Shown: in pieces, positions 1 to 51,474 of the stretch
How the letters are laid out: every line of letters begins with the position of its first letter
Numbering within the stretch: position 1 is the stretch's first letter
DNA from: a virus
Taxonomy: Duplodnaviria; Caudoviricetes
Direction: 5' to 3' (one strand)
IMG/VR virus record: IMGVR_UViG_3300024344_000022
Location: 1-51,474 of that record
Length of the DNA stretch: 51,474 nucleotides
Program-made: the position numbers and the translations under genes
The notes under the pieces: model-generated
What the model saw: the letters and a program-made list of their open reading frames with translations, nothing else
Told to the model about the DNA's origin: nothing
The model's database searches: none

Positions 1-1765
1 CTAAAAATCCAGAACTGTTTCGGTAGTAAATATCGCCAGTGGCATCACTTCCTACTGCAAGTCCATAATTAGTTAAAATCATGTCATCAGCAGACTCGTC
101 AAAAAGCACCGATGATCCAGATGTTGCCCCAAAAAACTTTACGTCATGTCCGGTATCGTCTACACCGACTGTCACCGTGCTATCAATCTGGACAGCAGCA
201 TTTACATCAAGTCCAACGTCAAACTTAATTGCCTCACTGCTGTTGGTTGTGACAAATGTCATGTAAGCATTGTCAGCTTCTTCAAAAACCAAAGAAGTGG
301 CACTGTTATCAAGCATTTTAACAGAAGACGCAGCACTAAAACGCAACGCTCCATCTGCTCCGGCAGAAAGCGTAAGATCACCTGCTATGTCTACCGCTCC
401 GCTGAAATCACCTGTAGCTGCATCAACTTCACCGGATAATGTTAAGTTGCCTACACCTGTAACATTATTACTATCGTCTATAATAACGGAGCTTGCCTGT
501 AAAGTTCCTCCACCTGTTCCATTGGCGCGTGGCACTGCGTTGTCCGTAGACCCTACTGAGCCACCTATATCTCCACCGGACGATGCTGCCCATGACGGAA
601 TACCCGAATCAAGCGTTAAGACATTGCCGTTTGACCCAGCCGCTAAACGTGCGAGAAATCCGCTTGAATTGCGATAATAGATATCACCCGTAGCGTCCGA
701 TCCTACAGCTAATCCGAAATTGGTAAAAATCACATCATCGGCAGATTCATCAATCAACACACTCGATCCGCTTGTAGCACCAAAGAACTTGACATCGTAG
801 CCCGTATCATCAACCCCAACGGTGATCGTTCCGTCTATCTGCATGGCAGCATCTATGTCCATAGCAGCGTTTATATCGAGTGCCTTGTCAAACTTAACAG
901 CTTCGGAACTGTTAGTGGTAACAAAAGTCATATAGGCATTATCGGCCTCTTCTATGACCAATGAAGCTGAATTGTTGTCAAGAATCTTTATTGAGCTTGC
1001 AGCAGAAAAACGTAATGCTCCATCTGCACCAGCCGACAAAGTTAAATCGCCAGAGATGTCTGCATTGCCGTTTACGTCCAGTGAGCCAAAATCACCTTCA
1101 CCAGCTACGGTGATACCAGCGGCTCCATCTAATACGGTTAGTCCTACCGCATCTCCGTTGTCTGTAAACTTTAAATCTTTGCCGTTAGTTATAACTTTAA
1201 CTGTGACATCACCTGAGTTGCTCTCTGTTATGCTTAAAACGGACGATCCCGCATCTTTAAAGGTAAACACGCCAGTATGAGCATCGAGCGTTAGAGCGTC
1301 ACCTGAGTCGAGAACAATAGGGTTACCGGCTAACGTAGCACCTGTAGTTCCATCGTGTGTAATCGTAAAGTCAGAGCCTGCACCTAACGACAATACAGCA
1401 GAATCGCTTAACAATTTCAGATCATCACCGATGATTGCGTCCAGTGCTACAGATAATCCACCGTCCGTTTGTAACGCCCCATCGGTTGTTGACGTTGCAT
1501 TCGTTGTATTGTCTGTTTTGAGCAACCCTGATACGGTTAGGTTGTTCAGTTGGTTCGATGCAGACGTATCGTCGAGGTCACGGCTTGAATCCACAACTAA
1601 CGCTTTCGATGCCGTAACCTGCCCGGCTGTTACACCTAAGTTAGAAGCATCTAAACCGCCATTTATGGCTGACGAAGTTAGTAAATTGTCGAACTCGTTA
1701 TTGAGTTGTGCAGCAGTTAAAACTGCACCTGATGCAAATGTATGTACTCTGGATACAGAACCCAT
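1..1765 (-). CDS. Tail fibre protein, copy A (3' end runs off the window; continues in frame into 35481-34601 if circularised)
   Basis: ATG at 1765 (MGSVSRVHTFASGAVLTAAQLNNEFDNL), colinear with 34601-37468; missing from the ORF track because there is no stop. Confidence 0.9.
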   Translation of the reverse strand, partial: MGSVSRVHTFASGAVLTAAQLNNEFDNLLTSSAINGGLDASNLGVTAGQVTASKALVVDSSRDLDDTSASNQLNNLTVSGLLKTDNTTNATSTTDGALQTDGGLSVALDAIIGDDLKLLSDSAVLSLGAGSDFTITHDGTTGATLAGNPIVLDSGDALTLDAHTGVFTFKDAGSSVLSITESNSGDVTVKVITNGKDLKFTDNGDAVGLTVLDGAAGITVAGEGDFGSLDVNGNADISGDLTLSAGADGALRFSAASSIKILDNNSASLVIEEADNAYMTFVTTNSSEAVKFDKALDINAAMDIDAAMQIDGTITVGVDDTGYDVKFFGATSGSSVLIDESADDVIFTNFGLAVGSDATGDIYYRNSSGFLARLAAGSNGNVLTLDSGIPSWAASSGGDIGGSVGSTDNAVPRANGTGGGTLQASSVIIDDSNNVTGVGNLTLSGEVDAATGDFSGAVDIAGDLTLSAGADGALRFSAASSVKMLDNSATSLVFEEADNAYMTFVTTNSSEAIKFDVGLDVNAAVQIDSTVTVGVDDTGHDVKFFGATSGSSVLFDESADDMILTNYGLAVGSDATGDIYYRNSSGFL

Positions 1766-1768
1766 TAT

Positions 1769-4702
1769 CTACCTCTGTGTCTGTCCTAATGTGGAAAGTA
1801 AATTTCTTCGTTCCTGGGCCTCTTCGCCCTGTTCTTCTGCTCTTGCAGTTATTGCACCGCCTTGCAATATTGTTCTCATCAAAGATTGGCGATCTGGAGG
1901 CATTTGCTCTAAAGCACTTTCAAGCTGTTTTGCATCTTCATGTGCTTTAAAAACATCGTTATCGGTTAAATCTTTTCGCTTTTTGCCTGTAACCTTACTT
2001 GCCCAAGCACTTGCCTCCGTCCAAGCATCAAGCCCTCTGCGTTTGGCTTCTGCAAGACCTTCCGCTCCCATTTTTGTGTAATTATTAAGAACCTTACGAC
2101 CCTCTGGAGAATAAGCCCTGATTAATAACTGGCTTCCATATTTTGGAGAAAATACAGCAAGAGCAGGGAAAAACTCTACCAATGTCACCATAACAGCCAA
2201 AGGATGCGTAAGACCACCAGCGGCTGTTCTGGACAACTGACTTATCTCACCCCTTGGAGCCAAACCGGTAGCAAGTGTTGGCCGAAGATTTGCCCCTAAG
2301 ACCTGAGAAATCATTTCTGGCCTGTTGGTAACTTCTGATAACTCAGCTAAGGTTTCAAACGCTAATCCTGTATCGTCATCAAAGGCATTTAAAACAGACC
2401 GCAACACCTCGCGTTCTTTGCCAGGCTGTTTTAATATTGTTTCAAAGACAGGCGAACCATCTTCAACAACAGCTTTTCCTTCTTCATCTACTACAATCCT
2501 TCGCCTACTGTCAGGAGTTTTAATACGCAAATCATCACTAAGCCTTTTCATAAAATCTTGAAAGTCCATATGCTCACGCATTGCAAGGCTGTAATCGCCT
2601 AATTCAATAGTTGGAAATTCTCCAGTATCGGCATCTCCATAAAACTCTTTTAATATATTCTTTTCATTAGCAGCCCAACTCTCAACCTTGTCAGGATCAA
2701 TAAAAGCAAACTCTCCCTCAAGGCGTTCAATGTCTCTTAACTTTTCCTGTTCGAGGATATCGTCATACTTACCGGCCTTATCTCCTTTTGTAACTTTTGA
2801 CCTGGAGAACTTTTTAACAAATGCATCTCTTCCTTGTCTTATAATATCAAATAGTTCTTGCTCAGGAATATTATAAGTTTCTGGATTACTGTAAAATTCA
2901 ACTGCATCATCGCCCTTTTTATAGATAGGTAACCCTTCTCTCATTTGCTGAGATCTTGCAGCAGGGAAGTTTTTAGTGTAATAGTCGTTCAAGAACATGT
3001 CAGCATCAAAACCGCCTGCCCCTAACTCGCCAAACACATCTAATGATTCTAAAATATCTCTTCTAATCTGAGGATCTTTATAGCCTGCTTCTATATCTCT
3101 TTGTAGTCCCTTTTTTACCTTTTGCTTACGAAGCCCCATAACATGAGCATTCATCGTTATAGGGTCATCAGCAACTTTACCTATATAGTCACGGGTATAA
3201 GCATATATATCATCTAAAACCCTTGTAGCGTTAGTTGTAGGGCCATCTTTGCCATACCGTAGATCACCTACTAACTGTTTAAACTTATCAAGCTGTTCAA
3301 GGGTTATAAACCCATCATTAAACCTTGGGTCATACAAGCTTTCTAATGCGTTAACCACTCCCTTTTGCCCTGTCTCTCCAAAGAAGGGCCGAAACTCAGG
3401 AATAACTTGACCAAGCATGTTTTCTTTAAATTGAAAATCGTTTTTTATTAAATTCTGCAAGCCATTTCTAAAATCTTGAACCCCCACTGTAATTTTATCC
3501 ATGTGGAGAAGCTTGCGTCTTTCATCTTGTATTTTTGTTTGGTTTTTCTTGTATTCCTGTACAGCATCAGTAATGTTTGAGGCCAGTTTACGAGAAACAA
3601 TAGCATCTCCGCTAACCTTGCGTCCATTTACAACTTCATCACCTTGACGTATAGCCTTAAGGACAACGCCTGTTTGCTTTGAATCATTTGTGGCTGTATC
3701 AACAACCTTACGCACCAACCTTTCGGGAAGGTTCCAGGTAAAAGACAAAGTATTAAACAACAAGCCTTCCAAAGTTCCTCTCAAAGAACCTTTTTCTCCT
3801 ACAGTTTTTTCAATTTGTTCTTGCGTTTTTTCAACAGCTTTTTCTTTAAAGCCTTTTATCTTGTCTAATCCCGTTTTAGGAAGACTTGAATATTTTTCTT
3901 TTATTTCTCGCAACCGAGTTCCATAAGGCGAGTCTTCTAATAGAGAATTTAATCTATCAACTTTGTCTTTAGTAAAGTTTTTAATAGGGGCCATTACAGG
4001 ACGAGCTACTCTACGCGCACCGGCTCCAACTATCTTCCCTGCACCTTTAGCTGTTGCCTTGCCTGCCCTAAAACCAAGAGAAGGTAAAGCTAAGGTAGGA
4101 TCTAATCTTTGCGCAGCACTACCAACACGTTCTGCTTTTTCAGCAAACCCTTTTGTTTTGCCTGCCTTAGATAGGGCTTTGGCTCCCACAGAAGCACCTT
4201 TTGCTCCTACCGCAGTGCCACCAGCCAACATACTTAATATATCTAATGGTCGTTCTTGTATTCCTCTCCCGGTAAACTCGTATTCACCATCTTTTTTATC
4301 AAAACCAACGGCTCCGGCAAGCCCTTCGCCTAACTGTTCAGCCATTTGAATGTTTTTAGGACTAAACTGAGTCCCTAAAGCCAACTCAGCACCTCCAGCG
4401 ACCCCTCTCCCAAGTGCTTCTGCGGTATCAAGAGGATTCATAACAGCTGTAGCTAAATCTTCTACTATTGCACCAGCACTTGAAGGGATATTACCCAACG
4501 TCTTTAATACATTAAACCCTTCTTCTGGGTCATAAGCAAAAGTAGCTCGATCTTCTTCTTCTGCTACATTGACGCTGTATTTATCGCCATATTTTTCTGA
4601 GAATTGCAATCCCAACGATTCACTGTTTCGGTCTGCATATTCTGGCTTGGCCTTTTTTATTGCCTCACCAAGCTGAATGTATGTGTCAAATTTATATGCC
4701 AT
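1769..4702 (-). CDS. Large putative DNA ejection / internal virion protein, copy A (977 aa)
   Basis: Position between nozzle and tail fibre as in P22 gp16/T7 core genes; Ala/Gly-rich amphipathic segments; weak similarity to 37468-39513 (ERP..L..LA, EISQ..R). Confidence 0.6.
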   Translation of the reverse strand: MAYKFDTYIQLGEAIKKAKPEYADRNSESLGLQFSEKYGDKYSVNVAEEEDRATFAYDPEEGFNVLKTLGNIPSSAGAIVEDLATAVMNPLDTAEALGRGVAGGAELALGTQFSPKNIQMAEQLGEGLAGAVGFDKKDGEYEFTGRGIQERPLDILSMLAGGTAVGAKGASVGAKALSKAGKTKGFAEKAERVGSAAQRLDPTLALPSLGFRAGKATAKGAGKIVGAGARRVARPVMAPIKNFTKDKVDRLNSLLEDSPYGTRLREIKEKYSSLPKTGLDKIKGFKEKAVEKTQEQIEKTVGEKGSLRGTLEGLLFNTLSFTWNLPERLVRKVVDTATNDSKQTGVVLKAIRQGDEVVNGRKVSGDAIVSRKLASNITDAVQEYKKNQTKIQDERRKLLHMDKITVGVQDFRNGLQNLIKNDFQFKENMLGQVIPEFRPFFGETGQKGVVNALESLYDPRFNDGFITLEQLDKFKQLVGDLRYGKDGPTTNATRVLDDIYAYTRDYIGKVADDPITMNAHVMGLRKQKVKKGLQRDIEAGYKDPQIRRDILESLDVFGELGAGGFDADMFLNDYYTKNFPAARSQQMREGLPIYKKGDDAVEFYSNPETYNIPEQELFDIIRQGRDAFVKKFSRSKVTKGDKAGKYDDILEQEKLRDIERLEGEFAFIDPDKVESWAANEKNILKEFYGDADTGEFPTIELGDYSLAMREHMDFQDFMKRLSDDLRIKTPDSRRRIVVDEEGKAVVEDGSPVFETILKQPGKEREVLRSVLNAFDDDTGLAFETLAELSEVTNRPEMISQVLGANLRPTLATGLAPRGEISQLSRTAAGGLTHPLAVMVTLVEFFPALAVFSPKYGSQLLIRAYSPEGRKVLNNYTKMGAEGLAEAKRRGLDAWTEASAWASKVTGKKRKDLTDNDVFKAHEDAKQLESALEQMPPDRQSLMRTILQGGAITARAEEQGEEAQERRNLLSTLGQTQR

Positions 4703-6309
4703 TATTCATCCAATGATATTTCATCGTTTGCAAGAGCCGTTGAAAAGTCAGTAGCACTGTCTATAGGAGAGCCAATCAATTGCTCAAAATAACCAAACAC
4801 CCTGTTGCGATATCTAGGATCTATTAACCCTTGTCCTGGCTGATCTTCTGTCCCTATATAAGCGTTAACTTGATCCATTGCGGCTTTTTGTTTTGCGTTA
4901 TGAACTTTTTCTATAAGATCAAACATTTCTCTTACAGTTGATTGAGCAAATATACCACCTTGGCTTGTCATTCTTTCATAAGGAGATTGAAGTAGTTTTT
5001 CAAATAATCCTTGAGACTCTTTAACCATATTAGCATCTTCCACCCTAACGGTAGCAGGGTCAAAGAATCGTTGATACTGTTGGAAGATAGCTGCATTTTC
5101 TATTGGCCCAGGATCTTTTTGAAATTTCTCAAAAACAACCTTAGCATTATCATATAAGGCTTTGCCCCCACTTTTCGGATCTAAATAACCACCTTCAACA
5201 TTTAACTGTGTGGCCTTATTTAAAGAATCCACGCTTTTTTGAATTTCTCCATAGTCAGCCCCAGATGCTTCGGCTAACGCTACTTTAGCTTCCTCCATAG
5301 CAACTTCAAAATCTTTTTCCATGCCTTCTCTTGCAATTTTCAGCTTTTCATCTGTTTGACCCAAGGTACGTTCTTCCACGTCTTTTGCTCTGCGTCGAGT
5401 CATTTCATCTGAAGCCACCTTACCGCCTCCGGCAATAGCCTTACCTAACGTATCAAGCGAAAGGAAACCGCCTGTATCGGCCCTCTCTTCAGCGACCCCT
5501 GGAGTACGACCTGTTAATGCCCCAATAAGGTTAGCTCTTGCCATACGCTCTTCTGTGGCCTTGTCAGCCTTCCGTTGTGCCTTGCCTTGAGCTACGTTGC
5601 TAAGTAGTCCACCACCCAATTGAGCAATCTGAGCCGCTACTTCTGGGTTGTTTTTAATTAACTGGCCTATCTTACCAAAAAAAGAAGATGATTCTTTTGG
5701 CTCTACTGTTGTTGTTGAAGCAGAAGGCTTTGGAGTAACAGCTTTTTTTTCTTCAACTTCAGGTACATCAAAGTTTTTTCTCATTTCATCTGTTACAACA
5801 ACAGGAGGTATTTCCTCTTTAATAGGTGGAGGTGTCGGCATAAGCTCTTCTCTGCGCTTATCTCGATTTACCTGATCATCTTCTGAGCCTAAGCCAAGAA
5901 TAATTCTTTCTTTGTCTTCGCCTGTAATATCACCGCCCATGTCTTTAGCGGTAATAAAACTACCCAAAGATTTTTTATCCTTAGTGTATGGATCTTTTGT
6001 AACGTCTAAATTTCCAGTTAATATAGAAAACAAAGGATCTGTTGGTTTAGTATCGACTGTTATAAGAGGCGATCCAAGACCATCCCTTCCTTGCAATAAC
6101 ACACTTTGAGCAGCCTCATCAAATTCTTCTTCAGAAGCTCCTTCCATACCTGGAGGAGTTTTTACGTTTAAATTCACCCCTGTCATATTCTTGTCCGGTG
6201 CAGGCAAGCCCAGTTTTAGACGTTCTTCTTCTAATCGCCTTTTAAATTGTTCTTCAGTTTCGCCCGGCATCATTTTAATTGGTGGCATACTGCCTAATAA
6301 TTCACTCAT
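4702..6309 (-). CDS. Putative DNA ejection protein, copy A (535 aa)
   Basis: Synteny; shares central block NPE..AQIAQLGGGL...RMARANLIGALTGRTP...ERADTGG..SLDTLGKAI.GGG with 39513-41036. Confidence 0.6.
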   Translation of the reverse strand: MSELLGSMPPIKMMPGETEEQFKRRLEEERLKLGLPAPDKNMTGVNLNVKTPPGMEGASEEEFDEAAQSVLLQGRDGLGSPLITVDTKPTDPLFSILTGNLDVTKDPYTKDKKSLGSFITAKDMGGDITGEDKERIILGLGSEDDQVNRDKRREELMPTPPPIKEEIPPVVVTDEMRKNFDVPEVEEKKAVTPKPSASTTTVEPKESSSFFGKIGQLIKNNPEVAAQIAQLGGGLLSNVAQGKAQRKADKATEERMARANLIGALTGRTPGVAEERADTGGFLSLDTLGKAIAGGGKVASDEMTRRRAKDVEERTLGQTDEKLKIAREGMEKDFEVAMEEAKVALAEASGADYGEIQKSVDSLNKATQLNVEGGYLDPKSGGKALYDNAKVVFEKFQKDPGPIENAAIFQQYQRFFDPATVRVEDANMVKESQGLFEKLLQSPYERMTSQGGIFAQSTVREMFDLIEKVHNAKQKAAMDQVNAYIGTEDQPGQGLIDPRYRNRVFGYFEQLIGSPIDSATDFSTALANDEISLDE

Positions 6310-6329
6310 TGATTTTTCCTATTCTCTCG

Positions 6330-6695
6330 TTATCCACCAAACATCGGCCTACCCCCTACAGGGGTTCCAAATTTCATACTTTGTTCCATAGCAGCCCTTG
6401 CAGCGTCACTCATTCCACCCATTCCACCCGTAGCTGGTTGTCCAATTTTACCAACCAAATCGCTTATAAGTTTTTGAGTGATCGGATCGCCTAACAATTT
6501 TTGCCCAATTCCAGGCTGTGATGCCTGTTGTGGTGCTGAAGGCTGGGCTTGCGGATTAAACGACTGTATCATTTTATCCTGTTTCGCCTGTTCCTCCATG
6601 CGTTTCTGATCGCGTTTGGCTTGCTGATTTGCCATCAACCCCTGCGCTGCACTTAACCCCATTGAGGCTACCATTGGTGCTGTAAAAAATGCCAT
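6330..6695 (-). CDS. Small putative ejection/pilot protein, copy A (121 aa)
   Basis: Hydrophobic Gly/Ala N-terminus then Gln-rich coil; homolog of 41052-41339. Confidence 0.55.
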   Translation of the reverse strand: MAFFTAPMVASMGLSAAQGLMANQQAKRDQKRMEEQAKQDKMIQSFNPQAQPSAPQQASQPGIGQKLLGDPITQKLISDLVGKIGQPATGGMGGMSDAARAAMEQSMKFGTPVGGRPMFGG

Positions 6696-6706
6696 TTTAT
6701 GCCTTT

Positions 6707-9121
6707 CTATGTACGTTCAAATTCGTCAGTAACAGCATTGTAATTACCAACCGTTTGCCCTGATGAGGCATTTATCAATTTTCTTTTGCCATTTTTATCA
6801 ACAAATATTCTTAATTGACCTGACCCTAAATCTGGATTGTTTTCTAAGAAACGATTAACAGATTGACGTTCTCTATTTTCTTCGTCTCCAAGATTTCCTC
6901 TTGTGCCTGTTACTTCTCCTCCGGCAACATTTATTACTGATCCAGTTCCTCCTCCAGCCGCTACACCATCTTCATCGCCACCTCTATCACTGAAATCTGT
7001 TCCTGTACGTAATGCCTCTCGTATTAATTCTACAGATTCTGGATCAAAAGATTGTATGTTTTGCGTTAGACCTTCTAATAATTGTGGCGTTCCTGGCTTA
7101 TCTCTTAATTCTTGACCAGCAAGAATAGCACCAATCAAGTCCATATCAGCTTGTCTTCCAGCCAATGTTGAATCATCGCCTAACATTCCGGTCAAGCCGG
7201 CTCTACGCAGTTCAGCTTCCAATGTTGGATCGTCTTCAAACTCACCCGTCAAACCAGCGCGTGTGGCATCACGTCTTAATGCAGCCGTATCCAGTTCACT
7301 CTCCAATGCTCTTGCTTGCTGAGTCTCTACTGGAGCCATGTTCGCTGCACCTGTATCAAACAGTCCGGTCTGACCGGCTTCAGCTATTCTACGCTGTAGG
7401 TCTTCGGTCTGTAATCCGCTACCTGTGGTTTCACCCGTTAGCGTTTGCCGACCATCAATCTCACCAAACAACTGCGATTCTAACTGCTGACCAGCTAATG
7501 TTTTCTGACCATCATCTCCAAACTCGCCAGTTAAGGCAGCGTCTGCACGTTCCTGACCCCTACTTAACGCATCAAGTTCTGCGCTCTGTCTTTTTGCAGC
7601 CATTGTTTCATCGCGTTCAAATATTCCAGTTTGACCGGCTCTGGCAATGTCACGATTCAACGCTTGCGTTAGGGTGTCCTGTTGAGATCGAGTTTCCTGT
7701 AGACCCATACCGCGCTGGCCTAAATCAAAACCCTGAGCATCACGTAAGTCCTGTTGTCTGCGTTGTGCAGCCTGAGCTTCGAGTGCTAAACGGTTACGTT
7801 CATCGCCTTCACCCATTCTCGCTAAAGCGGCCGCTGTATCGCCTCCACCTCGCAACACACCATATCGACCCAACTGCTCGACCAAAGCCTTACGCGCTTC
7901 GTTCTGTCTGAATTGCTGATCGGCTAATTGTGAGGCCATAATCGGATCGTCTGTTCCACCGATTCGATCCATGTATTGCTGACGTAGTGCATCTTCTAGC
8001 GTATCAGCCATTGGTGCAGCTTCCGGTTCAACCACATTCTGCATAGCTGCCATATCTGCACCGGCATCTGGATTGTAAGGCGAAGGTTCAGTAGCATCAG
8101 CAGTTAGCTTTTTAACAAAATCTGCATCACTTAAAGGATTTTCTGTAAGCGCAGTTGCTTTAGTGGTTAAGTCTTTAACAAAATCTGGATCACCTAAAGG
8201 ATTTTCTGTAAGCGGTTGATTTGACCGTTCTTCTGCTAAGTCTTTAACGAACTCTGGATTACTTAAAGGGTTAGTCTCGGTTCTAACAGGCTCAGTTGCT
8301 TTAGCAGTTAAGTCTTGAACATACTCTGGGTTACTTAGAGGATTAGTATCAGGCGTAACTGGCGCAGTTGCTTTAGTAGTTAGGTCTTGAACGAACTCTG
8401 TATTACTTAAAGGGTTAGTTTCAGTTGTAACTGGCGCAGTTGCATCGGCAGTCAGCTTTTCAACAAAATCTGAATCACTTAAAGGGTTCGTTTCAGTTCT
8501 AACCGGTTCGGTTGCTTTAGTAGTTAAGTCTCGAACGAACTCTGTATTACTTAAAGGGTTCGTTTCAGTTCTAACCGGCTCAGTTGCTTTGGTAGTTAGG
8601 TCTCGAACAAACTCTGTATTACTTAAAGGGTTAGTCTCAGTAGCTGGCGGCTTTGAGCGTTCTTCTGTCATTGCCCGAACCGTTGATACATTACTTAAAG
8701 GGTTACTGTCAGTTGTAACTGGCTTAGTAGCTTTAGTAGTTAAGTCTTGAACAAACTTTGTATTACTTAAAGGGTTAGTCTCAGTAGCTGGCGGTCTACC
8801 AAAGTTCGGATTGCTTGTCGGGTTTGTCGTAGTTGCCGTAAGGTTACCGGGTGGTGGTGGAGGTGGTGGCATGGCTGGTGGTGTATTAGCACCCTGACTT
8901 GGAGTCGCTGTCGTTGTTGACGTATCTACGCCTCCTACGTTTCCTCCGACACCCGGAGCCATATTTGCGGCTTGGTTATTTGCACCGAATCCACTGCCGG
9001 TAGCACCTCCTTGTATGGCAGCAACTAATGGATCAACGCCTGTGTTCATTTGGTCATAGCCAACCGCGTTACCTTTTTTAGGCTTCTTGCCTAACATCAT
9101 CTCGTTATAGCTTACCGCCAT
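6707..9121 (-). CDS. Repeat-containing putative virion/ejection protein, copy A (804 aa)
   Basis: Directly downstream of nozzle gene (TAATG coupling); poly-Pro, 24-aa tandem repeats, conserved helical C-half shared with 41351-43771. Confidence 0.65.
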   Translation of the reverse strand: MAVSYNEMMLGKKPKKGNAVGYDQMNTGVDPLVAAIQGGATGSGFGANNQAANMAPGVGGNVGGVDTSTTTATPSQGANTPPAMPPPPPPPGNLTATTTNPTSNPNFGRPPATETNPLSNTKFVQDLTTKATKPVTTDSNPLSNVSTVRAMTEERSKPPATETNPLSNTEFVRDLTTKATEPVRTETNPLSNTEFVRDLTTKATEPVRTETNPLSDSDFVEKLTADATAPVTTETNPLSNTEFVQDLTTKATAPVTPDTNPLSNPEYVQDLTAKATEPVRTETNPLSNPEFVKDLAEERSNQPLTENPLGDPDFVKDLTTKATALTENPLSDADFVKKLTADATEPSPYNPDAGADMAAMQNVVEPEAAPMADTLEDALRQQYMDRIGGTDDPIMASQLADQQFRQNEARKALVEQLGRYGVLRGGGDTAAALARMGEGDERNRLALEAQAAQRRQQDLRDAQGFDLGQRGMGLQETRSQQDTLTQALNRDIARAGQTGIFERDETMAAKRQSAELDALSRGQERADAALTGEFGDDGQKTLAGQQLESQLFGEIDGRQTLTGETTGSGLQTEDLQRRIAEAGQTGLFDTGAANMAPVETQQARALESELDTAALRRDATRAGLTGEFEDDPTLEAELRRAGLTGMLGDDSTLAGRQADMDLIGAILAGQELRDKPGTPQLLEGLTQNIQSFDPESVELIREALRTGTDFSDRGGDEDGVAAGGGTGSVINVAGGEVTGTRGNLGDEENRERQSVNRFLENNPDLGSGQLRIFVDKNGKRKLINASSGQTVGNYNAVTDEFERT
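8090..8835 (-). repeat. Intragenic tandem repeats of about 72 nt (about 10 x TETNPLSNTEFVRDLTTKATEPVR-like)
   Basis: Recurring ttacttaaagggtt.g in DNA and NPLS motif in translation. Confidence 0.9.
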
Positions 9122-43771: not shown

Positions 43772-45270
43772 TATTCTATACCCGTGTTGCGTTCGCGTGT
43801 ATTTCCAATAGGCTTGTATTGGAGGTTTGCACGTCGAACAGTAAATGGTTCATCTAAGTTGAAGTTGGAAAAGCGCAGCATAGTTCGTGGATCGTAACCA
43901 AATAAATCCGAATCCTGAGTTAGTGCAGATACGTCCGACTCTAATAATGACGAGTCCAAAACAAACGAACTGTCCAGCAGACTACCTACGTTACCCATTG
44001 TGATAGTTTCTGTGTTGGAAACAATACCGGCAGCAATCTGCGATATACTGAGATCAAACGCTCCAGTATTATCAAACAGCGTCCGGTTATACAGCCAGCG
44101 ACATGATACTGCATCACCGCGTGGAGCTATTGAGGCCGTTTCAAAATAAGCCTTGATAGCACTTCCATCGTCGTTCGTTCCGCTATCGTGTTTATTGATG
44201 CGCCCGGCAAAGTCACCGGCATGTGGCAAGTCGTCGATAAGCGCTGCACTGTCACGGGTAAAATTATTATACGGGCCAAACCACGCATTAAGTCGTGCAG
44301 AGTAAATCACCACACTGTTCATTGTCGTTTGCGATGCACCATACGGTAAGAAAAACCAGACTTGTTCCTGTGCAGGGTAATACATAGCAAACGAATACGG
44401 CAAACGAGCTACATTTAGTTCGCTCCAATATCTGTCATCCAGTGCCAAAGAAATCTTCTCAACACTTGCACCGCCTGACCATTGGTAGATGCCATCGTTA
44501 CGCACAAACAACTGACGCTCACCAGGAACCGTAACAATACTTTTGCCGGCTACGGTTCCGCGTTGCGTTCGCTGTTGTTGCTGAAAAGGTATCGTTGCGT
44601 TACCCGTAGGCGTAAGTGTATGAATGCCCTGCTCTGTGTGGATAGATAAATAGTTTTGGAATGGGCGTAACCCGGTAATGTCAAAACCTACGCTGTTAAA
44701 ACTGAGTGAACCCCACGTTTCGATGTCACCGGCATCGCTTCGCCATAAACGATCTGCGGCTCCGTTTATGTTGCCAACCCATGCACGATTTTCCCAAAAG
44801 GTTACCCATTTAGGTTTGGTGAATCGAGAGCTATCGTCGAGTGTTGCTGCGTTGCTCGTTCCACCTGCCCACTTGATACCGTCTGTGTCCTGACCGTTTA
44901 CCGCAATCAATGTGCTACCGGCCAATACCCAATCCCACGTATAGTCATTGCCGGCAGTTATGGTCACGCTACCTGTTCGATCTGTTGCCGTTCCACCTGT
45001 AACATCAAAAAACTTATCACCGCAAAAAGCGAAAACCTTTTCTGTTCCGGCTAATACAACCTGACCACATGCAGTTACCGTAGCACCGCTGTTCATTGCA
45101 CTTGCATTATACTTTGCAAACCCGTTCCGCTTGGCTACCTCACCGGCCAACCCAACCGTGCAGTTTTCCATTTCAAACAGACCGTCCGGTGGCATGTCTT
45201 CAGCCGGTAAGCTGTAGTTTACCCCACTTCTCCAGGGGCCAAGACGTAACGATTCAGCGGTTATCGGCAT
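43771..45270 (-). CDS. Tail nozzle / head-closure protein, copy B
   Basis: Close homolog of 9121-10623. Confidence 0.7.
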   Translation of the reverse strand: MPITAESLRLGPWRSGVNYSLPAEDMPPDGLFEMENCTVGLAGEVAKRNGFAKYNASAMNSGATVTACGQVVLAGTEKVFAFCGDKFFDVTGGTATDRTGSVTITAGNDYTWDWVLAGSTLIAVNGQDTDGIKWAGGTSNAATLDDSSRFTKPKWVTFWENRAWVGNINGAADRLWRSDAGDIETWGSLSFNSVGFDITGLRPFQNYLSIHTEQGIHTLTPTGNATIPFQQQQRTQRGTVAGKSIVTVPGERQLFVRNDGIYQWSGGASVEKISLALDDRYWSELNVARLPYSFAMYYPAQEQVWFFLPYGASQTTMNSVVIYSARLNAWFGPYNNFTRDSAALIDDLPHAGDFAGRINKHDSGTNDDGSAIKAYFETASIAPRGDAVSCRWLYNRTLFDNTGAFDLSISQIAAGIVSNTETITMGNVGSLLDSSFVLDSSLLESDVSALTQDSDLFGYDPRTMLRFSNFNLDEPFTVRRANLQYKPIGNTRERNTGIE

Positions 45271-45968
45271 CAGCTTAACGATCCTTCAGTAGGCGTAAAA
45301 GAAAACTTGTTGCTGTAGCTCTCATCTGCTCTACGCATACGGTATGAACGGTTACCCTGCACGTTCATGTTTTGCCGACCTGCAATAGCAATTACGCGCT
45401 CCATCTCCTGTTTGTCCGACATTGCGCCCTGATCGTCACCTTTCTCTTGCTTATATAATGCAGAGATGCCGTGTATAAGTGCCGGCTGACATACAGGTGC
45501 TACATACGGATTTATGGAGTCGCTATCTTCAGATTCTGTAAACGTGGGTATGGACGAGTAGTAGCGATACGCAATCGTGTCTACGCCGTCCGGCTCCGGA
45601 TACAACGTGACTTCAATGTTACCGCTAGAGTCTACGCCATCAATAGCAACCCATCGCGGATCGCCATTTATACTGGCATCCGGATCAGCCGCATCAATGT
45701 CTTGCGTAGACATGATAAGAATGACGTGATCTTCGGTAGTGTTGCGAAACGACAACGGAGCCACTACGTCACTGGCCAGCGAATACGTACGAGTGCCGTT
45801 TACTGTATTAAAAGTTGAACCTTTGAACAGCCAGTTCCATTTTTCACGCGAAGCTATATCCTGAGTGACCAGATTTAAATAGTCACGCGCCCCGTCTTTA
45901 AATGTCGAACTACCTGTATTCAGACCAACCCTTCTAAGGGCAATCTGAATGATCTGCAAATTTGTCAT
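45270..45968 (-). CDS. Head-tail adaptor, copy B
   Basis: Close homolog of 10623-11321. Confidence 0.75.
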   Translation of the reverse strand: MTNLQIIQIALRRVGLNTGSSTFKDGARDYLNLVTQDIASREKWNWLFKGSTFNTVNGTRTYSLASDVVAPLSFRNTTEDHVILIMSTQDIDAADPDASINGDPRWVAIDGVDSSGNIEVTLYPEPDGVDTIAYRYYSSIPTFTESEDSDSINPYVAPVCQPALIHGISALYKQEKGDDQGAMSDKQEMERVIAIAGRQNMNVQGNRSYRMRRADESYSNKFSFTPTEGSLS

Positions 45969-45975
45969 GCTAACC

Positions 45976-46203
45976 CTATATCAAGTTAGCCCATGCTCCA
46001 TTTTCATACCCTTGAAACTTGTTGTCCGTAGAGTTGTAGATCAGCATTCCGTTTGCTGCGGTCAGTGCGTTGCGTTCGGTTGTTGTTAAACTTGCAACCG
46101 TTAACGTATCTGACAATTTTACGGTGTCTGCCTCTACTGCTCCAATCAACGCAGAATCGCCAAAGAAACTGGCCGCGTTGACTTGTCCAAAAGTTTCTGA
46201 CAT
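45976..46203 (-). CDS. Small virion protein, copy B
   Basis: Homolog of 11331-11558. Confidence 0.6.
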   Translation of the reverse strand: MSETFGQVNAASFFGDSALIGAVEADTVKLSDTLTVASLTTTERNALTAANGMLIYNSTDNKFQGYENGAWANLI

Positions 46204-46626
46204 CTATTGATGCGCCGTAGCTGCAATCTGATCTAAATCGTATTCAGACAAGTTGTCGCCGTTGTTGTCCAACCAGCGGTCTTGCCAAATGCGTACGGCT
46301 TCCTCGCCACGATCTTTAATACGCGACGGTGGATCGGGTACGAATCCTGGTGCATGAGTTACTTCTCCAACAGCACGAACATGGTTGCGCACTTGGCTGT
46401 TGGTTACCGGTGACTTGCGCTGACGAGTGTGCGTTTTATCCAGGTCGAGCGCCTTGCGAATTGCGTTTTTTGTTTCATCAGACCCCTTCAAAATGAGGTC
46501 AGCAATTTGATCTGGCGTGACACTGGCTGTCGGTGCTTCAACAGGTGTAGCATCTTGCACTACTTCGGCCAACTGTTCCGGCAGGGTATGCTCTTGCGTT
46601 TTTGCTGTAGGCATACGTTTTGCCAT
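46204..46626 (-). CDS. Conserved hypothetical protein, copy B
   Basis: Homolog of 11559-11978. Confidence 0.8.
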   Translation of the reverse strand: MAKRMPTAKTQEHTLPEQLAEVVQDATPVEAPTASVTPDQIADLILKGSDETKNAIRKALDLDKTHTRQRKSPVTNSQVRNHVRAVGEVTHAPGFVPDPPSRIKDRGEEAVRIWQDRWLDNNGDNLSEYDLDQIAATAHQ

Positions 46627-46647
46627 TTGTAATCTCTTTCGTTAATA

Positions 46648-46698
46648 CGTGCGACGATGGGCTGGAGGTATCACATTGTGAGAACCCACCGCCACACG
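46648..46698 (-). terminator. Hairpin/terminator after decoration gene, copy B
   Basis: 16-bp stem cgtgtggcggtgggtt/agcccatcgtcgcacg; weak U-tail. Confidence 0.55.
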
Positions 46699-46711
46699 AA
46701 AAGTGAACTGC

Positions 46712-47500
46712 TTATCTGCTGATACCCTGCAATACAACACCCACATGTCCAGTGGTGTCGGGTGCAAATGTGGCAAAACCGACCAGCGGTTCTGTCTCTG
46801 CATCCTTTGCATGTACCGCACCGGCTACGCCATCAGACAAGGTTAGGTTTTGTCCAATAGCTATGGTTCCATCCGCTAAGATGGTTGATACACCAGCGGT
46901 CTGAATCCAACCGTAATAACCCGACTGCATCACTCGCGCTGTAACGCCAGAAATGACGTAATCAGTTGCTGCGGTTGATGCAACAACTTGGTTATACAGG
47001 TTACCCGTAATCGCAACATCAGTAGCCGTAGTTACTGCGACAACCAGCCCGTCATACAGGGTGAATGTCACCGCGTTGCTACTGGCTGCCGTGTTAGATT
47101 TGATACGGTAGGTGTAACCTTCTGATGCATCGTCTGTAGTATGCAAGTATCCACCGGCATACTGGTTAGCAGTTGCCGACCCTAAAGTTCCGCTATCGGT
47201 CAAAATAACTTCTGTTGCACCGATTGCTGCTGCGGTTGCTTTATTGTCAACTTCTACAACGGCTGTAGCAGATAAATCTTGCGACACCAACACACCGGCT
47301 GCTGTAGCACCGGCAAAACTTCCGTAACGAAATACTCGACCGTCTTCAAACTCACGCTTGGTTCCGATAGGATATTCCTGTGTTGATGACTCTTCGTAGA
47401 TTCCTTGTGGTGATCCACCGGTTGCACCGGCAATCGACCCTAACGAATCTGTTGTTGCATTGTTATAACCTGTTCCCAGGTCTTGCGCTCCACTTGGCAT
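46712..47500 (-). CDS. Putative capsid decoration protein, copy B (262 aa)
   Basis: Homolog of 12048-12794 with a different N-terminus. Confidence 0.6.
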   Translation of the reverse strand: MPSGAQDLGTGYNNATTDSLGSIAGATGGSPQGIYEESSTQEYPIGTKREFEDGRVFRYGSFAGATAAGVLVSQDLSATAVVEVDNKATAAAIGATEVILTDSGTLGSATANQYAGGYLHTTDDASEGYTYRIKSNTAASSNAVTFTLYDGLVVAVTTATDVAITGNLYNQVVASTAATDYVISGVTARVMQSGYYGWIQTAGVSTILADGTIAIGQNLTLSDGVAGAVHAKDAETEPLVGFATFAPDTTGHVGVVLQGISR

Positions 47501-47515
47501 TTCTATTTCTCCTTT

Positions 47516-47556
47516 GCCTTTTTGCTCGGCTCAAAAGACGCATTGGCTTGCGTCTT
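47516..47556 (-). promoter_or_regulatory. Conserved two-hairpin RNA element, copy B
   Basis: aagacgca-AGCCAA-tgcgtctt then gcc-gagcaaaaa-ggc just before the AAGGAG SD. Confidence 0.7.
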
Positions 47557-47567
47557 GGAATTGTTTA

Positions 47568-48554
47568 TTAACTGATACCTGTAATTACACCCTGACGACG
47601 ACGATTCGAGGTAACTAGGTTTAAACCCACAGTGATAAAGGCGACCTTCGCCATTTGATTTGCATTTTCGCGGAATGGAGTCTTGCTAAAATTCATACCT
47701 GACTGCATGTGCATCTTCAAGTAATTGGTATTGAAGAAATACATACGACCCGATCCGCAGTCACGGTCATACTGCACCGGAATACCACGAAACGACGGCA
47801 AACGGCCATCTACACCCGGCGAATCGTTACCCGAAAGACGCTGATAACCCGTGCCTTCAAATATCTCTTCAAACTGTGCGTAAATAGAATTTGTCGTGAA
47901 GATATTGGTTGGCTGTTCATTGCCTTCGGATGTTGCATTCCAAAGACTTGCCATCCGCAACATACCTTCGTAAAAGTTTGTTCCGGTAATCGTTCTAAAC
48001 GATGTATCACCAGACGCATCTTCCGTTTTGTTTTTCCACCATGAATTACCGGACACCGTGATACCGCCCAACGTAGTTGGAGTCGTTCCCGGTGCATCAG
48101 CAATAATGTCTTGGAATCCTAACGGAGCCTTACCGGTCTGAGCAGAATACAACGAGGCATTAATCTGATCGCGCAACGTAAGCATGGACTGACGAGTCTT
48201 TGCTTCCAAAAGCGACATAACAGCTTCGCGTTTACGGTTCTCTTGTTCTTCGGTAAAGTTGATCGTAATAGGCACTGCGGCGTACCGGAACGGATAGAAC
48301 GCGGCTGTGATTCCATCGACCGCATCTGTGTTAAGTACGTCATAGCCTGAGAAATATTGCGCTGAGTTACCGGCATACAAAATGTCTGCCTGTATCTCTT
48401 TGCCACCGTTGTCTGTAACTAATGCTCCACCTTTACGAAACATGTCTAAAGTTGGGTATGCGTCAAAGAAGTTATCGGTCAACTCTTTGCGCTTGGCCCG
48501 CATAGTTAAAGTCCACGCGGCATCGAAAACTGAAGTACGTGATGTTGCTGCCAT
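47568..48554 (-). CDS. Major capsid protein, copy B (328 aa)
   Basis: About 20 substitutions (counted by eye) relative to 12863-13849. Confidence 0.85.
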   Translation of the reverse strand: MAATSRTSVFDAAWTLTMRAKRKELTDNFFDAYPTLDMFRKGGALVTDNGGKEIQADILYAGNSAQYFSGYDVLNTDAVDGITAAFYPFRYAAVPITINFTEEQENRKREAVMSLLEAKTRQSMLTLRDQINASLYSAQTGKAPLGFQDIIADAPGTTPTTLGGITVSGNSWWKNKTEDASGDTSFRTITGTNFYEGMLRMASLWNATSEGNEQPTNIFTTNSIYAQFEEIFEGTGYQRLSGNDSPGVDGRLPSFRGIPVQYDRDCGSGRMYFFNTNYLKMHMQSGMNFSKTPFRENANQMAKVAFITVGLNLVTSNRRRQGVITGIS

Positions 48555-48567
48555 AATCTATTTTTCC

Positions 48568-49437
48568 TTATTCAAAACCCAATTTGGATAACCCTGATAA
48601 AACATCAGAATCTGTTAATGGGCCGTCACTTTCCGTTGCATCAACACCTTGCGTTCCACGCACTGCACGTTTTGAGGACTTACGTGCTGACGTATCGCTG
48701 TTACGCAAATCGGCTGCCTTTTGAGCAGTGATACCTGCGTGTAGCTCATACGCCTCTTTCACCGTATACGGGTTACCCGTCGTCGGGTTAGCGATCTTGG
48801 TCGTAGCAACAATTTGATCGGTATACGCATCTAAATCATTGCCATACGCCTGTCGCGCATCACCCACCTGCGTGGCAATATGCGCGGTCTGCTGACCCTG
48901 CACGTAATTGTTGGCCGTAGCCAACTGTTGCTGTAACTGCTGCACCTGACTGTTCAGATCGTTTACTGCATTGCCTACCCTATGTTTAATGATCTGCTCT
49001 ACGGCATCTACACCGCGAGCTTCATCTTCAGAAAGGTTGGCTCTCATTGCATCAACCGGATCTTGCTGCTGCTGTTGGGGTGTAACGAGGGTTTGCACCC
49101 TGTTGGCCCATTCGCCCTGTTGTGCTTCGATCTGTCGGCGCTGCTCTGCTAAGTCCTGTTGCGTACGCGTGAATTGCGCTTGCATGTTTTTTGCGAGCGG
49201 AACTAACGGCTGATACTGCTCCGGCACATTGTCTGCGTTACCGCGTAACCAATCGTGCCGTTCCGGGTCAAAATCTGACTGTGCATCAGAGTGTCCAGAT
49301 GTTTCCGACGGTGCTTCATTGGGTGTGTCATCTGTGAAAAAATCAAGTGATGATTCAGTTGACTCTTCACTGGATGAACCCTCTGAAGGTGACGTGTCTT
49401 CCGCACCGGAGTCCAAAGCGAGTGCTGATTCGGACAT
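48568..49437 (-). CDS. Scaffolding protein, copy B
   Basis: Homolog of 13863-14732. Confidence 0.75.
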   Translation of the reverse strand: MSESALALDSGAEDTSPSEGSSSEESTESSLDFFTDDTPNEAPSETSGHSDAQSDFDPERHDWLRGNADNVPEQYQPLVPLAKNMQAQFTRTQQDLAEQRRQIEAQQGEWANRVQTLVTPQQQQQDPVDAMRANLSEDEARGVDAVEQIIKHRVGNAVNDLNSQVQQLQQQLATANNYVQGQQTAHIATQVGDARQAYGNDLDAYTDQIVATTKIANPTTGNPYTVKEAYELHAGITAQKAADLRNSDTSARKSSKRAVRGTQGVDATESDGPLTDSDVLSGLSKLGFE

Positions 49438-49839
49438 CTAATCTGCTCCTTCGTTAAATCTCTTCTCTGCCAGAGCCACTGCTTCTTCGGGTGTGTTACC
49501 AAAAGAAGGCGTTGGGGTATCTGTTGGAGTTGAGTCTGTTACATTGGAGTTTATATGACATCGAGAACCACCAACTGCATCGGCACTCTCTGTCACGTTG
49601 TATTTTTTTAACAATTCCTGTTTATGGCTGTAGCTCTCTACCACTTCACCAAAGCCAGCGTGAAACTTGCCATACATATTGCTGTGTGAGTTATGTATGA
49701 AGTTGCTCTTGATAAACAACATGGCTGCACGTTTGTCGCACTGGTCGCATTTAATCGTGCGCCTGACTTTGCTTGAGTCGTTGGCTACGTCAATCTGACG
49801 ATGCCCGTCTTCGCATTCGTAATCGTGAAATACCAGCAT
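49438..49839 (-). CDS. FmdB-like zinc-ribbon protein, copy B
   Basis: Homolog of 14736-15134. Confidence 0.65.
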   Translation of the reverse strand: MLVFHDYECEDGHRQIDVANDSSKVRRTIKCDQCDKRAAMLFIKSNFIHNSHSNMYGKFHAGFGEVVESYSHKQELLKKYNVTESADAVGGSRCHINSNVTDSTPTDTPTPSFGNTPEEAVALAEKRFNEGAD

Positions 49840-51474
49840 TATCCTTGACCCGGTGCGTTCTGTACGGCCTGACTAACTTCTTGTGCCTGACTGCGTACGA
49901 GTGATAAAATGTTTCCTTCTGCTACGCCGGCGTTACTGCCACCTCCACCGGCTGCTTGCGGTGCTTGACCTTGCGCCATCTGGTTTAGCATTTGTTGATG
50001 TTGCTGTATGTGGTTTTGCACCACGCCCATAACCTGTTGCTGTTGTTGTGGCAGTAGTTGCTGGAACTGTGGAAGTTGCTGTATCTGTTGGTGGATTTGT
50101 ATGTGCATCTGGTGATTCTCGTTTGGCGTGACACCCGGATCGCCACCGTTAATCAGGTAGGCTACGTTTTCCAGTTGTGCCGCTTTCAACGTGTCACCGT
50201 CTTCTGCATCACCTAAATATTTATCAGGATCTTGAACACGAAACGATGCCAACAATGACTTGATTGCTTCGATGCGGTTTATTTCTGGCAAGTTAATTGT
50301 CATGTTGAAAAGCTGTAGAGCGTCCTGACGTTCAAGTTGTTCCGTCAACGGCTGCATACTACCGGCTTCGATGTCAATCTTGTAACGTATCCGTAAAATG
50401 TCAGCGGTCACCGCCTCGTATACCGGATCTTCGGTATCTCTTGCTACGTTGACTAAGAAGTCATCGGGTAAATATCTTTCATCGGCCATCATACGTAACG
50501 AGTTGCGAACAACAGCACGGTAGCAATCGGCTACGCGCAACTGCATCCATTCGCGGTTGACCTGAGCAAAACTTGCAGACAAAGAGGCTTGCGTGGCTGT
50601 GACTTTCGGCCCACCGCCCATCGCCATCTGCGATACGTTTAAACTTTGTTCCTCGTAGCTTTGTGCATCCGACTCCAGACCCAACTGATCCGGTGGAGGG
50701 TTGCCAAAGTTCATTTCGCGCATCGAAGTGCTTGGATCTTCCACCCAGATGATCTCACCGTCACGACCGCCTTCTAACGTATCACCAATGTCCTGGTTGG
50801 CTTCGCGTTCACGGCGCGAGGCTAAGACCACGCGCTGGAATCTTTTTAACAAATCGGCTCTGCGTGATACGGATTCGACAATGAGTGACTGCGTGTCCTC
50901 GACATACGCCATTGGCGGTTCGCCGTAAAACGAGCGTTCGGTCTGGTCAAACCGCAGTGCGTGGTATGGAAAGCCACCGTCCATCAGATAGCCACCAGCC
51001 GGTTCAAACTCACCCGTCATACGTTCTTCGCCGGTGAACGGATCGGTTTCTGTAATAGGGTTCATTGCAAGAAACGGATGATCGACTTCTTCAATCGGAT
51101 CGGTGACCCCTTCGGCAAATGTGATGCGCTTTTTGTGCAAGCGGTCATGGATTTCATACAGGCAAACCATCTGACCCTGCTTGGAATGCTGCACCGCGTC
51201 ATACTCGTCAGAATGTTCTGCATCTTGCATGTCATAAATAAAAGCGTCGGCCTGATCGTCATCGGACATCGCCTCTATCTGCCTACGGTTTACAAAACGG
51301 TCATCCTCTTTCACAAACTCTAAAGGCACCATCATCTTTTCGATGATATACCGTGCGCCTGACAATTTGTGCGGAGGACATAACGGATCGACGTAGACGT
51401 TAAACGGCGACACCCGATGCACATACGGAAAGTCGTTTTCCTGAGCATCGTTAATCGTGTATGGTGCAACGATG
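49839..51474 (-). CDS. Portal protein, copy B (5'-truncated by the window end)
   Basis: Homolog of 15862-17904; frame is open to the window end. Confidence 0.85.
   Translation of the reverse strand, partial: IVAPYTINDAQENDFPYVHRVSPFNVYVDPLCPPHKLSGARYIIEKMMVPLEFVKEDDRFVNRRQIEAMSDDDQADAFIYDMQDAEHSDEYDAVQHSKQGQMVCLYEIHDRLHKKRITFAEGVTDPIEEVDHPFLAMNPITETDPFTGEERMTGEFEPAGGYLMDGGFPYHALRFDQTERSFYGEPPMAYVEDTQSLIVESVSRRADLLKRFQRVVLASRREREANQDIGDTLEGGRDGEIIWVEDPSTSMREMNFGNPPPDQLGLESDAQSYEEQSLNVSQMAMGGGPKVTATQASLSASFAQVNREWMQLRVADCYRAVVRNSLRMMADERYLPDDFLVNVARDTEDPVYEAVTADILRIRYKIDIEAGSMQPLTEQLERQDALQLFNMTINLPEINRIEAIKSLLASFRVQDPDKYLGDAEDGDTLKAAQLENVAYLINGGDPGVTPNENHQMHIQIHQQIQQLPQFQQLLPQQQQQVMGVVQNHIQQHQQMLNQMAQGQAPQAAGGGGSNAGVAEGNILSLVRSQAQEVSQAVQNAPGQG

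Follow-up and report, generated by a model that had tools for sequence, protein, structure and literature searches.

The CheckV paper describes concatenated IMG/VR contigs of more than one genome length, in which a circular template was traversed again and a repeat of k length stands at the closure; the same source takes terminal repeats as long as the assembler's k as a sign of a circular template (PMC8116208). A related situation is found in the variant components, or bubbles, described for Phables, where co-occurring mosaic variants have unitigs in common and may be combined by assemblers or binners (PMC10104058). The window analysed here, i.e., the whole stretch of 51,474 bp, which is identical with the complete IMG/VR record IMGVR_UViG_3300024344_000022, resembles both. 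In our assessment, it is very probably a chimeric metagenome contig, composed of a full lap of a phage A and 15.9 kb of B, a sister phage that co-occurs with it. In contrast to the concatemers of the CheckV paper, the second lap would pass through a different lineage, approximately 80% identical to the first, and, whereas the variants in the Phables description are mostly >99% ANI, two species-level lineages touch here at one 161-bp stretch. Because the second lap runs through the other lineage, there is no end-to-end terminal repeat and the k-mer frequency is near 1. The record is therefore a cautionary case, as a wrap-around contig with a diverged second lap escapes both terminal-repeat and k-mer-frequency checks.

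With regard to gene content, the window resembles P22/SU10-like phages in its P22_portal and SU10_adaptor Pfam matches and in the presence of an integrase, and it shows the P22/Mx8/SU10-like order of terminase, portal, scaffold-like gene, capsid and adaptor, followed by large proteins of internal or ejection-like type and the fibre. A and B are probably marine phages of P22/Mx8/SU10-like type, temperate, short-tailed and intact. The capsid is 24–27% identical to those of Myxococcus phages Mx8 and Mx9, Bradyrhizobium phage ppBjS10J-1 and Stenotrophomonas phage BUCT555. This contrasted with the known members of the group in that no cultured relative exceeded 27% capsid identity and most virion proteins were without a family match. 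Likewise, a capsid search of a phage collection returned eight matches, all eight below 60% identity and thus no close cultured relative, and a search of species-representative genomes gave 56 pattern matches, with no relatives and no prophage relatives among them.

Repeat geometry of the record

The record is labelled "linear" with a completeness of 100%, and the genes at both of its ends are truncated. The elements that define its geometry are the following:

1..35481, no strand: phage A, one complete lap, taken as a 35,481-bp circle on the basis of the 127-mer closure, the intact fibre frame and the size of relatives
1..127, no strand: 127-mer, first copy, an exact copy of 35482–35608, with mismatch beginning at base 128 versus 35609
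35482..35608, no strand: 127-mer, internal copy, where circle A closes and B is entered
35448..35608, no strand: identical A/B stretch of 161 bp, common to the A side of the window and to the independent B-lineage contig L097, with the A-to-B crossover inside it
35609..51474, no strand: fragment of sister phage B, from the N-terminal part of the fibre to most of the portal, terminating within the portal gene as a dead end

A/B homology runs out to both contig ends (1 corresponds to 35482, and 17493 to 51473), while the right end of the window is without an exact repeat. Only one exact A/B match of at least 127 bp was found, the next longest being 126 and then 113. In the text of the JGI workflow, the k-mers listed for metaSPAdes are 33, 55, 77, 99 and 127, and thus the length of the repeat equals the top k of that workflow; on this basis, 1–35481 closes as a circle and 35609–51474 represents a second lap through the other lineage. 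Accordingly, two copies of a k-length repeat lie one genome length apart, with one of them at the contig end, the assembler of this particular record being presumed from the JGI workflow. When 35481 is joined to 1, the fibre stays in frame, with an 882-codon frame across the joint, so the joint breaks no gene, and the closed unit matches complete relatives in size and gene content. The genome of A would thus be circular or circularly permuted, with a length of 35,481 bp, a closure which rests on the 127-mer, the fibre frame and the synteny found in the relatives G001 and L098; among the independent contigs and reads examined, none ran from the A-side fibre end into A alleles. A public virus catalogue therefore lists as a "linear, 100% complete" 51-kb genome what is very probably a chimera with a true unit of 35,481 bp.

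The repeat geometry itself was observed directly, while we infer the assembler and its path. As A and B are identical over 161 bp midway along the tail-fibre gene, the last 127-mer of this stretch would act as the single linking vertex in a de Bruijn graph of k = 127. The assembly path would begin at this vertex, run through A and the terminase, early and lysis genes of A, and return to the vertex; instead of stopping, it would then leave a second time by the edge of B and die inside the portal gene of B.

Comparison of the two virion modules

Positions 1–17493 are colinear with 35482–51473 in the same orientation, with a nucleotide identity of 80–87% where alignable and of around 80% across the virion module. 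The sequence-only reading had reported 14 genes, from portal to tail fibre, occurring twice in the same orientation and without frameshifts, and this was confirmed here: all 14 pairs (portal, g3, g4, capsid, g6, g7, a 75-aa ORF, the adaptor g8, g9, g10, g11, g12, g13 and fibre) are open and lie on the minus strand. The main genes are as follows:

15862..17904, minus: portal of A, 680 aa, PF16510 P22_portal with 28.2 bits (cut-off 26.1), phrog_156
15134..15862, minus: A-only ORF of 242 aa in the gap between portal and g3, missing from B, G001, G002, L004, L005, L009 and L010
12863..13849, minus: major capsid protein of A, 328 aa, phrog_9953 (E = 1.4e-44)
10623..11321, minus: adaptor of A, 232 aa, PF24175 SU10_adaptor (E = 5e-17)
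6707..9121, minus: g10 of A, 804 aa, repeat-rich virion protein with internal repeats at 8084–8794
1769..6309, minus: g12 and g13 of A, 535 and 977 aa, hypervariable pair without Pfam or PHROG match
2..1765, minus: tail fibre of A, N-terminal 588 codons, the frame resuming at 35481 and running down to 34601
34601..37468, minus: fibre ORF as deposited, 955 aa, chimeric, with its N-terminal part from B and its C-terminal part from A, the latter with a Peptidase_S74 chaperone domain (PF13884, aa 843–902 of the ORF)
37468..51473, minus: B copies from g13 to portal, 13 genes, the portal being cut at its 5' end
18023..19402, minus: large terminase, lineage A, phrog_2
19547..20439, minus: small terminase and endolysin/peptidase, phrog_7344 and phrog_894
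25607–26848, plus: C5 DNA methylase, PF00145
27381–28310, plus: tyrosine integrase, PF00589

The PHROG search, run on two sets of ten proteins, gave no family for three and five, and the Pfam search, also on two sets of ten, gave none for seven in each; a tRNA search found none. The match between the modules is incomplete, as the 242-aa ORF is present in A and missing from B. This ORF had neither a Pfam nor a PHROG match, and an Atlas search was uninformative (top score 0.86, hypothetical viral clusters).

Divergence between the modules was markedly uneven. The capsids, for which about 20 differences had been estimated from the letters alone, differ in exactly 20 of 328 residues (93.9% identity), and the portal, g8, g9 and the N-terminal part of the fibre share 92–95% of their amino acids. 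Identity falls to 72% over 640 aa in g10, to 50% over 172 aa in g12 and to 30.6% over 196 aa in g13, which agrees with the earlier description of the ejection-type genes as barely alignable. The products of g12 and g13 are possibly ejection proteins; for g13, an Atlas search gave a lead, and a lead only, to P22 gp16 (rank 29, score 0.93). The head, adaptor and fibre-base genes are thus conserved between the sister phages, whereas g10–g13 are replaced. The pair had also been proposed as a natural experiment on which virion parts are swapped: this holds for an ordinary comparison of mosaic sister phages and for nothing beyond that, the comparison being a routine illustration of phage mosaicism. 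The dN/dS calculation per gene pair, suggested in the same context, was carried out and gave values of 0.03–0.42, with dS of 0.5–3.5 (not computable for g12), which indicates purifying selection on both copies.

Two intact modules under purifying selection would suit a real genome of at least 51.5 kb, in which two alternative virion modules, specifying particle types or host ranges, are served by one terminase/early/lysis block. A phage with such a dual virion programme would be remarkable, but the evidence speaks against its existence here. We regard this explanation as extremely improbable, firstly because the repeat extends to both contig ends with an exact overlap of k length, and secondly because of the flanks of B, its depth and the single-module organization of relatives, which argue against the sequence-only proposal of one phage with two virion programmes. 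By contrast, its other proposal, namely that the assembler joined two sister phages present together, gains support from the repeat geometry and from these same three lines of evidence, each of which was observed directly.

Flanks and depth of lineage B

At the terminase end, an independent contig of 7,577 bp (L010) is 100.000% identical to 47308–51474, up to the last base of the window, and continues for 3,410 bp beyond the window end. Relative to window positions 15860–20415, the identity of this extension drops to 78% and 74%, and it encodes intact portal and TerL proteins of 675 and 459 aa, respectively, the TerL being 79% identical in amino acids to that of the window. Similarly, L009, which is 95.6% identical to B, carries a terminase 79% identical in nucleotides to that of the window, and in G002, approximately 87% identical to B, this value is 74–77%. 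In A-like contigs, the terminase is much closer to the window's, with nucleotide identities of 94.7% in L004 and 90–92% in G001. Thus, B runs into its own terminase, and the block at 17494–35481 looks single-copy because the contig stops inside the portal gene of B.

At the fibre end, a second independent contig of 6,838 bp (L097) is 99.2% identical over 41331–35231. It shows no mismatches over 35448–35948, compared with 14 mismatches and a 3-nt gap within the 217 bp of 35231–35447. Eight of the L097-type positions (35351–35447) and the 3-nt gap at 35403 correspond to alleles found in sequencing runs (depth of 136.8 in X3). An exact 40-mer from the 127-mer was found in no further IMG/VR contig and in one JGI metagenome contig, namely L097. 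The link from B to the 127-mer is therefore real in an independent contig, a point in favour of a dual-module genome; however, B carries its own fibre-distal alleles there. Taken together, B is attached elsewhere to other partners, both at the terminase (L010, L009) and at the fibre (L097, runs), as a chimera predicts, and it is not flanked on both sides by the single-copy block of A, as a dual-module genome would require. The earlier statement that both modules share one terminase/early/lysis block does not hold, since in independent contigs B is found with a terminase and a fibre-distal sequence of its own.

These flanks also bear on the idea that two phages with differing virion modules have a near-identical terminase/early/lysis block, which the assembler collapsed. 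The single appearance of the block in the contig and the 94–100% identity of the fibre mid-region between lineages speak for it, but the terminase end of B in L010 is only 74–78% identical in nucleotides (TerL, 79% in amino acids), and over 217 bp at its fibre end there are 14 differing positions and an indel. Moreover, a shared block would have to exceed either module in depth, whereas in X3 the block (~49) lies below B (~141–147). B was compared with the block at these two ends, so that partial sharing in the middle of B is possible; a collapsed block as such is most improbable.

We also compared depth between the block and B over 27001–47000, a stretch that lies outside module A. Depth refers here to Logan contig depth, a crude figure given once per contig and not derived from reads directly, and was taken from 4 of the 24 runs listed and 29 of the 863 pieces, stretches without cover not being used. 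In X3, the block pieces had depths of 48.9–70.2 and the B pieces of 140.8–146.8 (also 104.5 and 73.2), B being approximately threefold deeper. In X19, B was present at 24.2–32.4 in near-identical form (7 differences in 2,590), while block pieces of 3.8–5.4 showed 4–9% differences, that is, B occurred without a near-identical block. X6 was ambiguous (block, 4.7–5.9; B, 10 and 5.5). In X1, possibly the source sample, depths were similar (block, 8.6–10.9; B, 6.8–12.0), which is predicted by a single molecule and so favours a dual-module genome, but which equally makes a misjoin likely. Overall, block and B were unequal in contig depth, with a ratio that varied between runs. The sequence-only reading had held that a dual-module genome falls if the depths of A and B differ or vary independently and no single molecule carries both; with the contig depth of block and B as a proxy, such differences were seen in X3 and X19, and none of the records examined, other than this contig, carried both modules.

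The variation in depth ratio between runs is likewise at odds with a correctly assembled heterodimer, either tandem related prophages or a recombinant concatemer from co-infection. Tandem lysogeny is conceivable, as the encoded integrase points to lysogeny, and A and B do appear together in the same runs, X1 having both haplotypes at 35398–35447. Nevertheless, the junction lies in the tail-fibre ORF, within the 161-bp identity, rather than at an att site next to the integrase; host DNA was not found within the IMG/VR record, and the genome collection held no prophage relatives. A heterodimer is thus very unlikely, and a chimeric contig remains the preferred explanation.

Single-module relatives and the 161-bp stretch

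Six of 80 capsid-anchored loci lie on contigs of at least 30 kb; these measure 32.3–36.7 kb, the longest being 36,715 bp and none near 51 kb, and those of 35.0–36.7 kb have a CheckV completeness of 95–100%. G001, with 36,177 bp and an exact 131-bp direct terminal repeat, carries a single virion module, as does G002, which was also read whole. A duplicated virion architecture was not seen in these two genomes, all 80 capsid-anchored loci are on contigs of at most 36.7 kb, and no record with both modules other than this contig was found among those examined. Among a further 80 loci, anchored on the fibre, there are unrelated contigs as long as 161 kb that have only fibre domains in common, and this set was left out of the genome-size argument; three of the loci were examined (L101, L098 and L106). 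In L101, an A-type g11–g13 and fibre cassette (91%) is combined with a head module whose identity to A or B is only 77%.

The 161-bp stretch, whose surroundings are 94–95% identical, might be a recurrent recombination linker at which sister phages swap a distal virion cassette (g10–g13 and the fibre tip), although we consider this doubtful. A natural recombinant with the block of A and the module of B, carrying one module and not two, might exist beside the parents. The mixed cassette of L101 and several unmatched flanks ending at 35610 and 35650 lend support in kind to the linker.

Loose ends were seen "before 35610" (three records in X1, one in X3) and "behind 35650" (X3). They were considered as A alleles and rejected as such, since neither 30-mer matches the window at up to three mismatches. 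These ends stem from additional lineages, and the graph at this point has a more complex structure than a pair of paths.

Virion modules A and B

The complete IMG/VR virus record (51,474 bp, class 'linear') carries every large virion ORF on the minus strand, and self-comparison of the window showed that its two virion modules are colinear, with 80–87% nucleotide identity in the aligned parts. The regions concerned are:

1–17493, minus strand: virion module A
17494–35481: terminase/early/lysis block
35482–51473, minus strand: virion module B

Alignment between the modules was lost between approximately 1.8–5.4 kb and 37.5–40.3 kb, and homology extended to both contig termini, where the first ORF (2–1765) is incomplete at the 3' end and the final one (49839–51473) at the 5' end. 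In line with the sequence-only reading, fourteen virion gene pairs were open in both A and B, and the capsids differed at 20 of 328 residues, exactly as it had stated. Its description of ejection-type genes as barely alignable fitted the hypervariable pair g12 and g13 as far as alignment goes; their ejection-type role stays putative, since an Atlas lead to P22 gp16 was the one match found for g13.

Amino acid identity between A and B for virion genes from portal to fibre
portal: 92.8%
g3: 82.4%
g4 (scaffold position): 86.5%
capsid: 93.9%
g6: 71.7%
g7: 88.5%
75-aa ORF: found in both modules
g8 adaptor: 92.6%
g9: 92.4%
g10: 72.3% over 640 aa
g11: 73.3%
g12: 50% over 172 aa
g13: 30.6% over 196 aa
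fibre N-part: 94.6%

Values of dS (0.5–3.5; g12 not computable) and dN/dS (0.03–0.42) for the gene pairs argue that the copies are old, functional and evolving separately, and not the product of a recent duplication. An extra 242-aa ORF (15134–15862, minus strand) forms a clean insertion between portal and g3 in A; neither B nor any of the six relatives in the comparison (G001, G002, L004, L005, L009 and L010) has it. It had no Pfam or PHROG family, its top Atlas score was 0.86, to hypothetical viral clusters, and it looks like a moron-type cassette. Internal tandem-like repeats in g10 (8084–8794 in A, 43054–43381 in B) differed between modules, and a variant of B's g10 skipping 57 nt (42196 to 42254) in the sequencing runs X3, X6 and X19 indicates repeat-number polymorphism.

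Contig geometry and the flanks of module B

Bases 1–127 are exactly those of 35482–35608, with identity breaking at base 128. This 127-mer is the sole exact A/B match of at least 127 bases, the runners-up measuring 126 (capsid gene) and 113. According to the JGI metagenome workflow, assembly employs metaSPAdes with k = 33, 55, 77, 99 and 127, the last being the largest. The CheckV paper (PMC8116208) states that circular templates yield terminal repeats of assembler-k length, and that some IMG/VR contigs contain the genome more than once, probably as assembly artefacts. The joint from 35481 to 1 keeps the fibre frame open (882 codons) and, together with the 127-mer repeat and k = 127, suggests that 1–35481 is one full lap and 35609–51474 a second. 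No exact repeat was found at the window's right end, which is a dead end within B's portal gene. Overall, the contig geometry points to the assembler. Inside the capsid gene, a 126-bp exact identity (12959–13084 vs 47664–47789) falls one base below k; one further identical base would have added a second A/B graph link.

Tandem prophages or a co-infection heterodimer, genuinely joined, would predict a junction at an att site beside the integrase gene, but the junction lies within the fibre ORF and the record holds no host DNA; we regard this origin as very unlikely.

The sequence-only reading also assumed one terminase/early/lysis block common to both modules, which did not hold at either block end. 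On the terminase side, an independent IMG/VR contig (L010; 7,577 bp) is 100.000% identical to 47308–51474, to the window's last base; the 3,410 bp that follow share only 78% (portal N-part and terminase) and 74% identity with window 15860–20415. L010 encodes an intact portal (675 aa) and a 459-aa large terminase with 79% amino acid identity to the window's. Terminase regions were likewise 79% identical to the window's in L009 (95.6% to B) and 74–77% in the genome-length relative G002 (36,715 bp; about 85–92% to B), vs 94.7% and 90–92% in the A-like L004 and G001. On the fibre side, an independent JGI metagenome contig (L097; 6,838 bp) matches 41331–35231 at 99.2%, with zero mismatches in 35448–35948 but 14 mismatches and a 3-nt gap in 35231–35447. 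The block is thus A's, B having its own terminase and fibre-side alleles. With the block also shallower than B in run X3, a block truly common to both phages is extremely improbable, on a test that covers both block ends.

The L097 mismatch pattern places the A-to-B crossover in 35448–35608, 161 bp identical in both lineages, whose final 127-mer is the first 127 bases of the contig. This layout is the expected product of a k = 127 graph whose repeat edge has two ways in and two ways out; the assembler's identity and its graph path are those that we infer.

Depth and haplotypes in sequencing runs

Region 30609–40608 was near-identical in 19 of the 24 listed runs (14 studies; marine, seawater and subsurface metagenomes, 2014–2025), and the phage group appears widespread. 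Depth was compared in four runs over 27001–47000, which covers parts of the block and of B, using one figure per Logan contig, not reads, among 29 of 863 pieces listed.

Logan contig depths
X3: block 70.2, 48.9, 49.4; B 146.8, 140.8, 104.5, 73.2
X19: block 5.4, 3.8 (41/458 and 28/689 differences); B 24.2–32.4 (e.g., 7 differences in 2,590)
X6: block 4.7–5.9; B 10, 5.5
X1: block 8.6–10.9; B 6.8–12.0

In a proxy for the depth check suggested by the sequence-only reading, block and B were unequal in X3 and X19, about equal in X1 and ambiguous in X6. For a chimera, X1 is neutral evidence at best and otherwise counts against it, since a single molecule would predict equality.

Eight variant alleles at 35351–35447 and a 3-nt deletion at 35403 are those of L097. 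They were the sole haplotype placed there in X3, at a B-like depth of 136.8; in X1 their share was 8.2 of 20 at seven of these places and also at the deletion; at 35351 it was 18.2 of 18.2. Other Logan contigs matched B from 35610 (three records in X1, one in X3) or the window up to 35650 (one in X3), and their loose ends continued for 135–226 letters without any match in the window; additional lineages, with different fibre segments, occur in the population.

Relatives and identity of the phages

A capsid search gave 154 pattern matches and 151 relatives, of which 80 were kept. Six of these were at least 30 kb (32,347, 35,032, 35,866, 36,177, 36,322 and 36,715 bp), and no longer contig was among the 80. 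CheckV completeness was 95–100% for the five long relatives searched as whole records. G001 has exact direct terminal repeats of 131 bp. Read whole, G001 and G002 each carry a single virion module, in the order lysis-side block, fibre, remaining module, which is the closed-circle topology; the fibre adjoins the block end in contig L098 too.

A single phage with two virion programmes, the first option of the sequence-only reading, is in keeping with the similar depths in X1, but fails on B's separate flanks (L010 and L097 diverge from the block), the unequal depths in X3, the end geometry (homology to both termini with a k-length repeat) and the relatives (32.3–36.7 kb, with a single module in each of the two read whole); we give it next to no probability. 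These same lines of evidence bear out its second option, sister phages joined by the assembler. We therefore hold with high confidence that A and B are real sequence of two real sister phages and that a chimeric assembly brought them together in a single record. The duplicated module is then an ordinary finding, its chief use being to flag the database record.

PHROG matches comprised large terminase, small terminase and endolysin; the portal matched P22_portal, g8 SU10_adaptor and the capsid family phrog_9953. The capsid is 24–27% identical to those of Myxococcus phages Mx8 and Mx9, Bradyrhizobium phage ppBjS10J-1 and Stenotrophomonas phage BUCT555. The fibre C-terminus bears a Peptidase_S74 chaperone domain, and a GP88-family protein is encoded in the window. 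A tyrosine integrase and a C5 cytosine methylase adjoin (25607–28310, plus strand), and the phage is probably temperate; no tRNA was found in the window, and no capsid relatives or prophages among species-representative bacterial genomes.

An A-type g11–g13-plus-fibre cassette was present on an independent 10.7-kb contig (L101:5071–10659 vs window 6419–849; 91% nt) whose adaptor and g9 genes share only 77% identity with A and B alike, and the distal virion cassette seems to be passed from one backbone to another.
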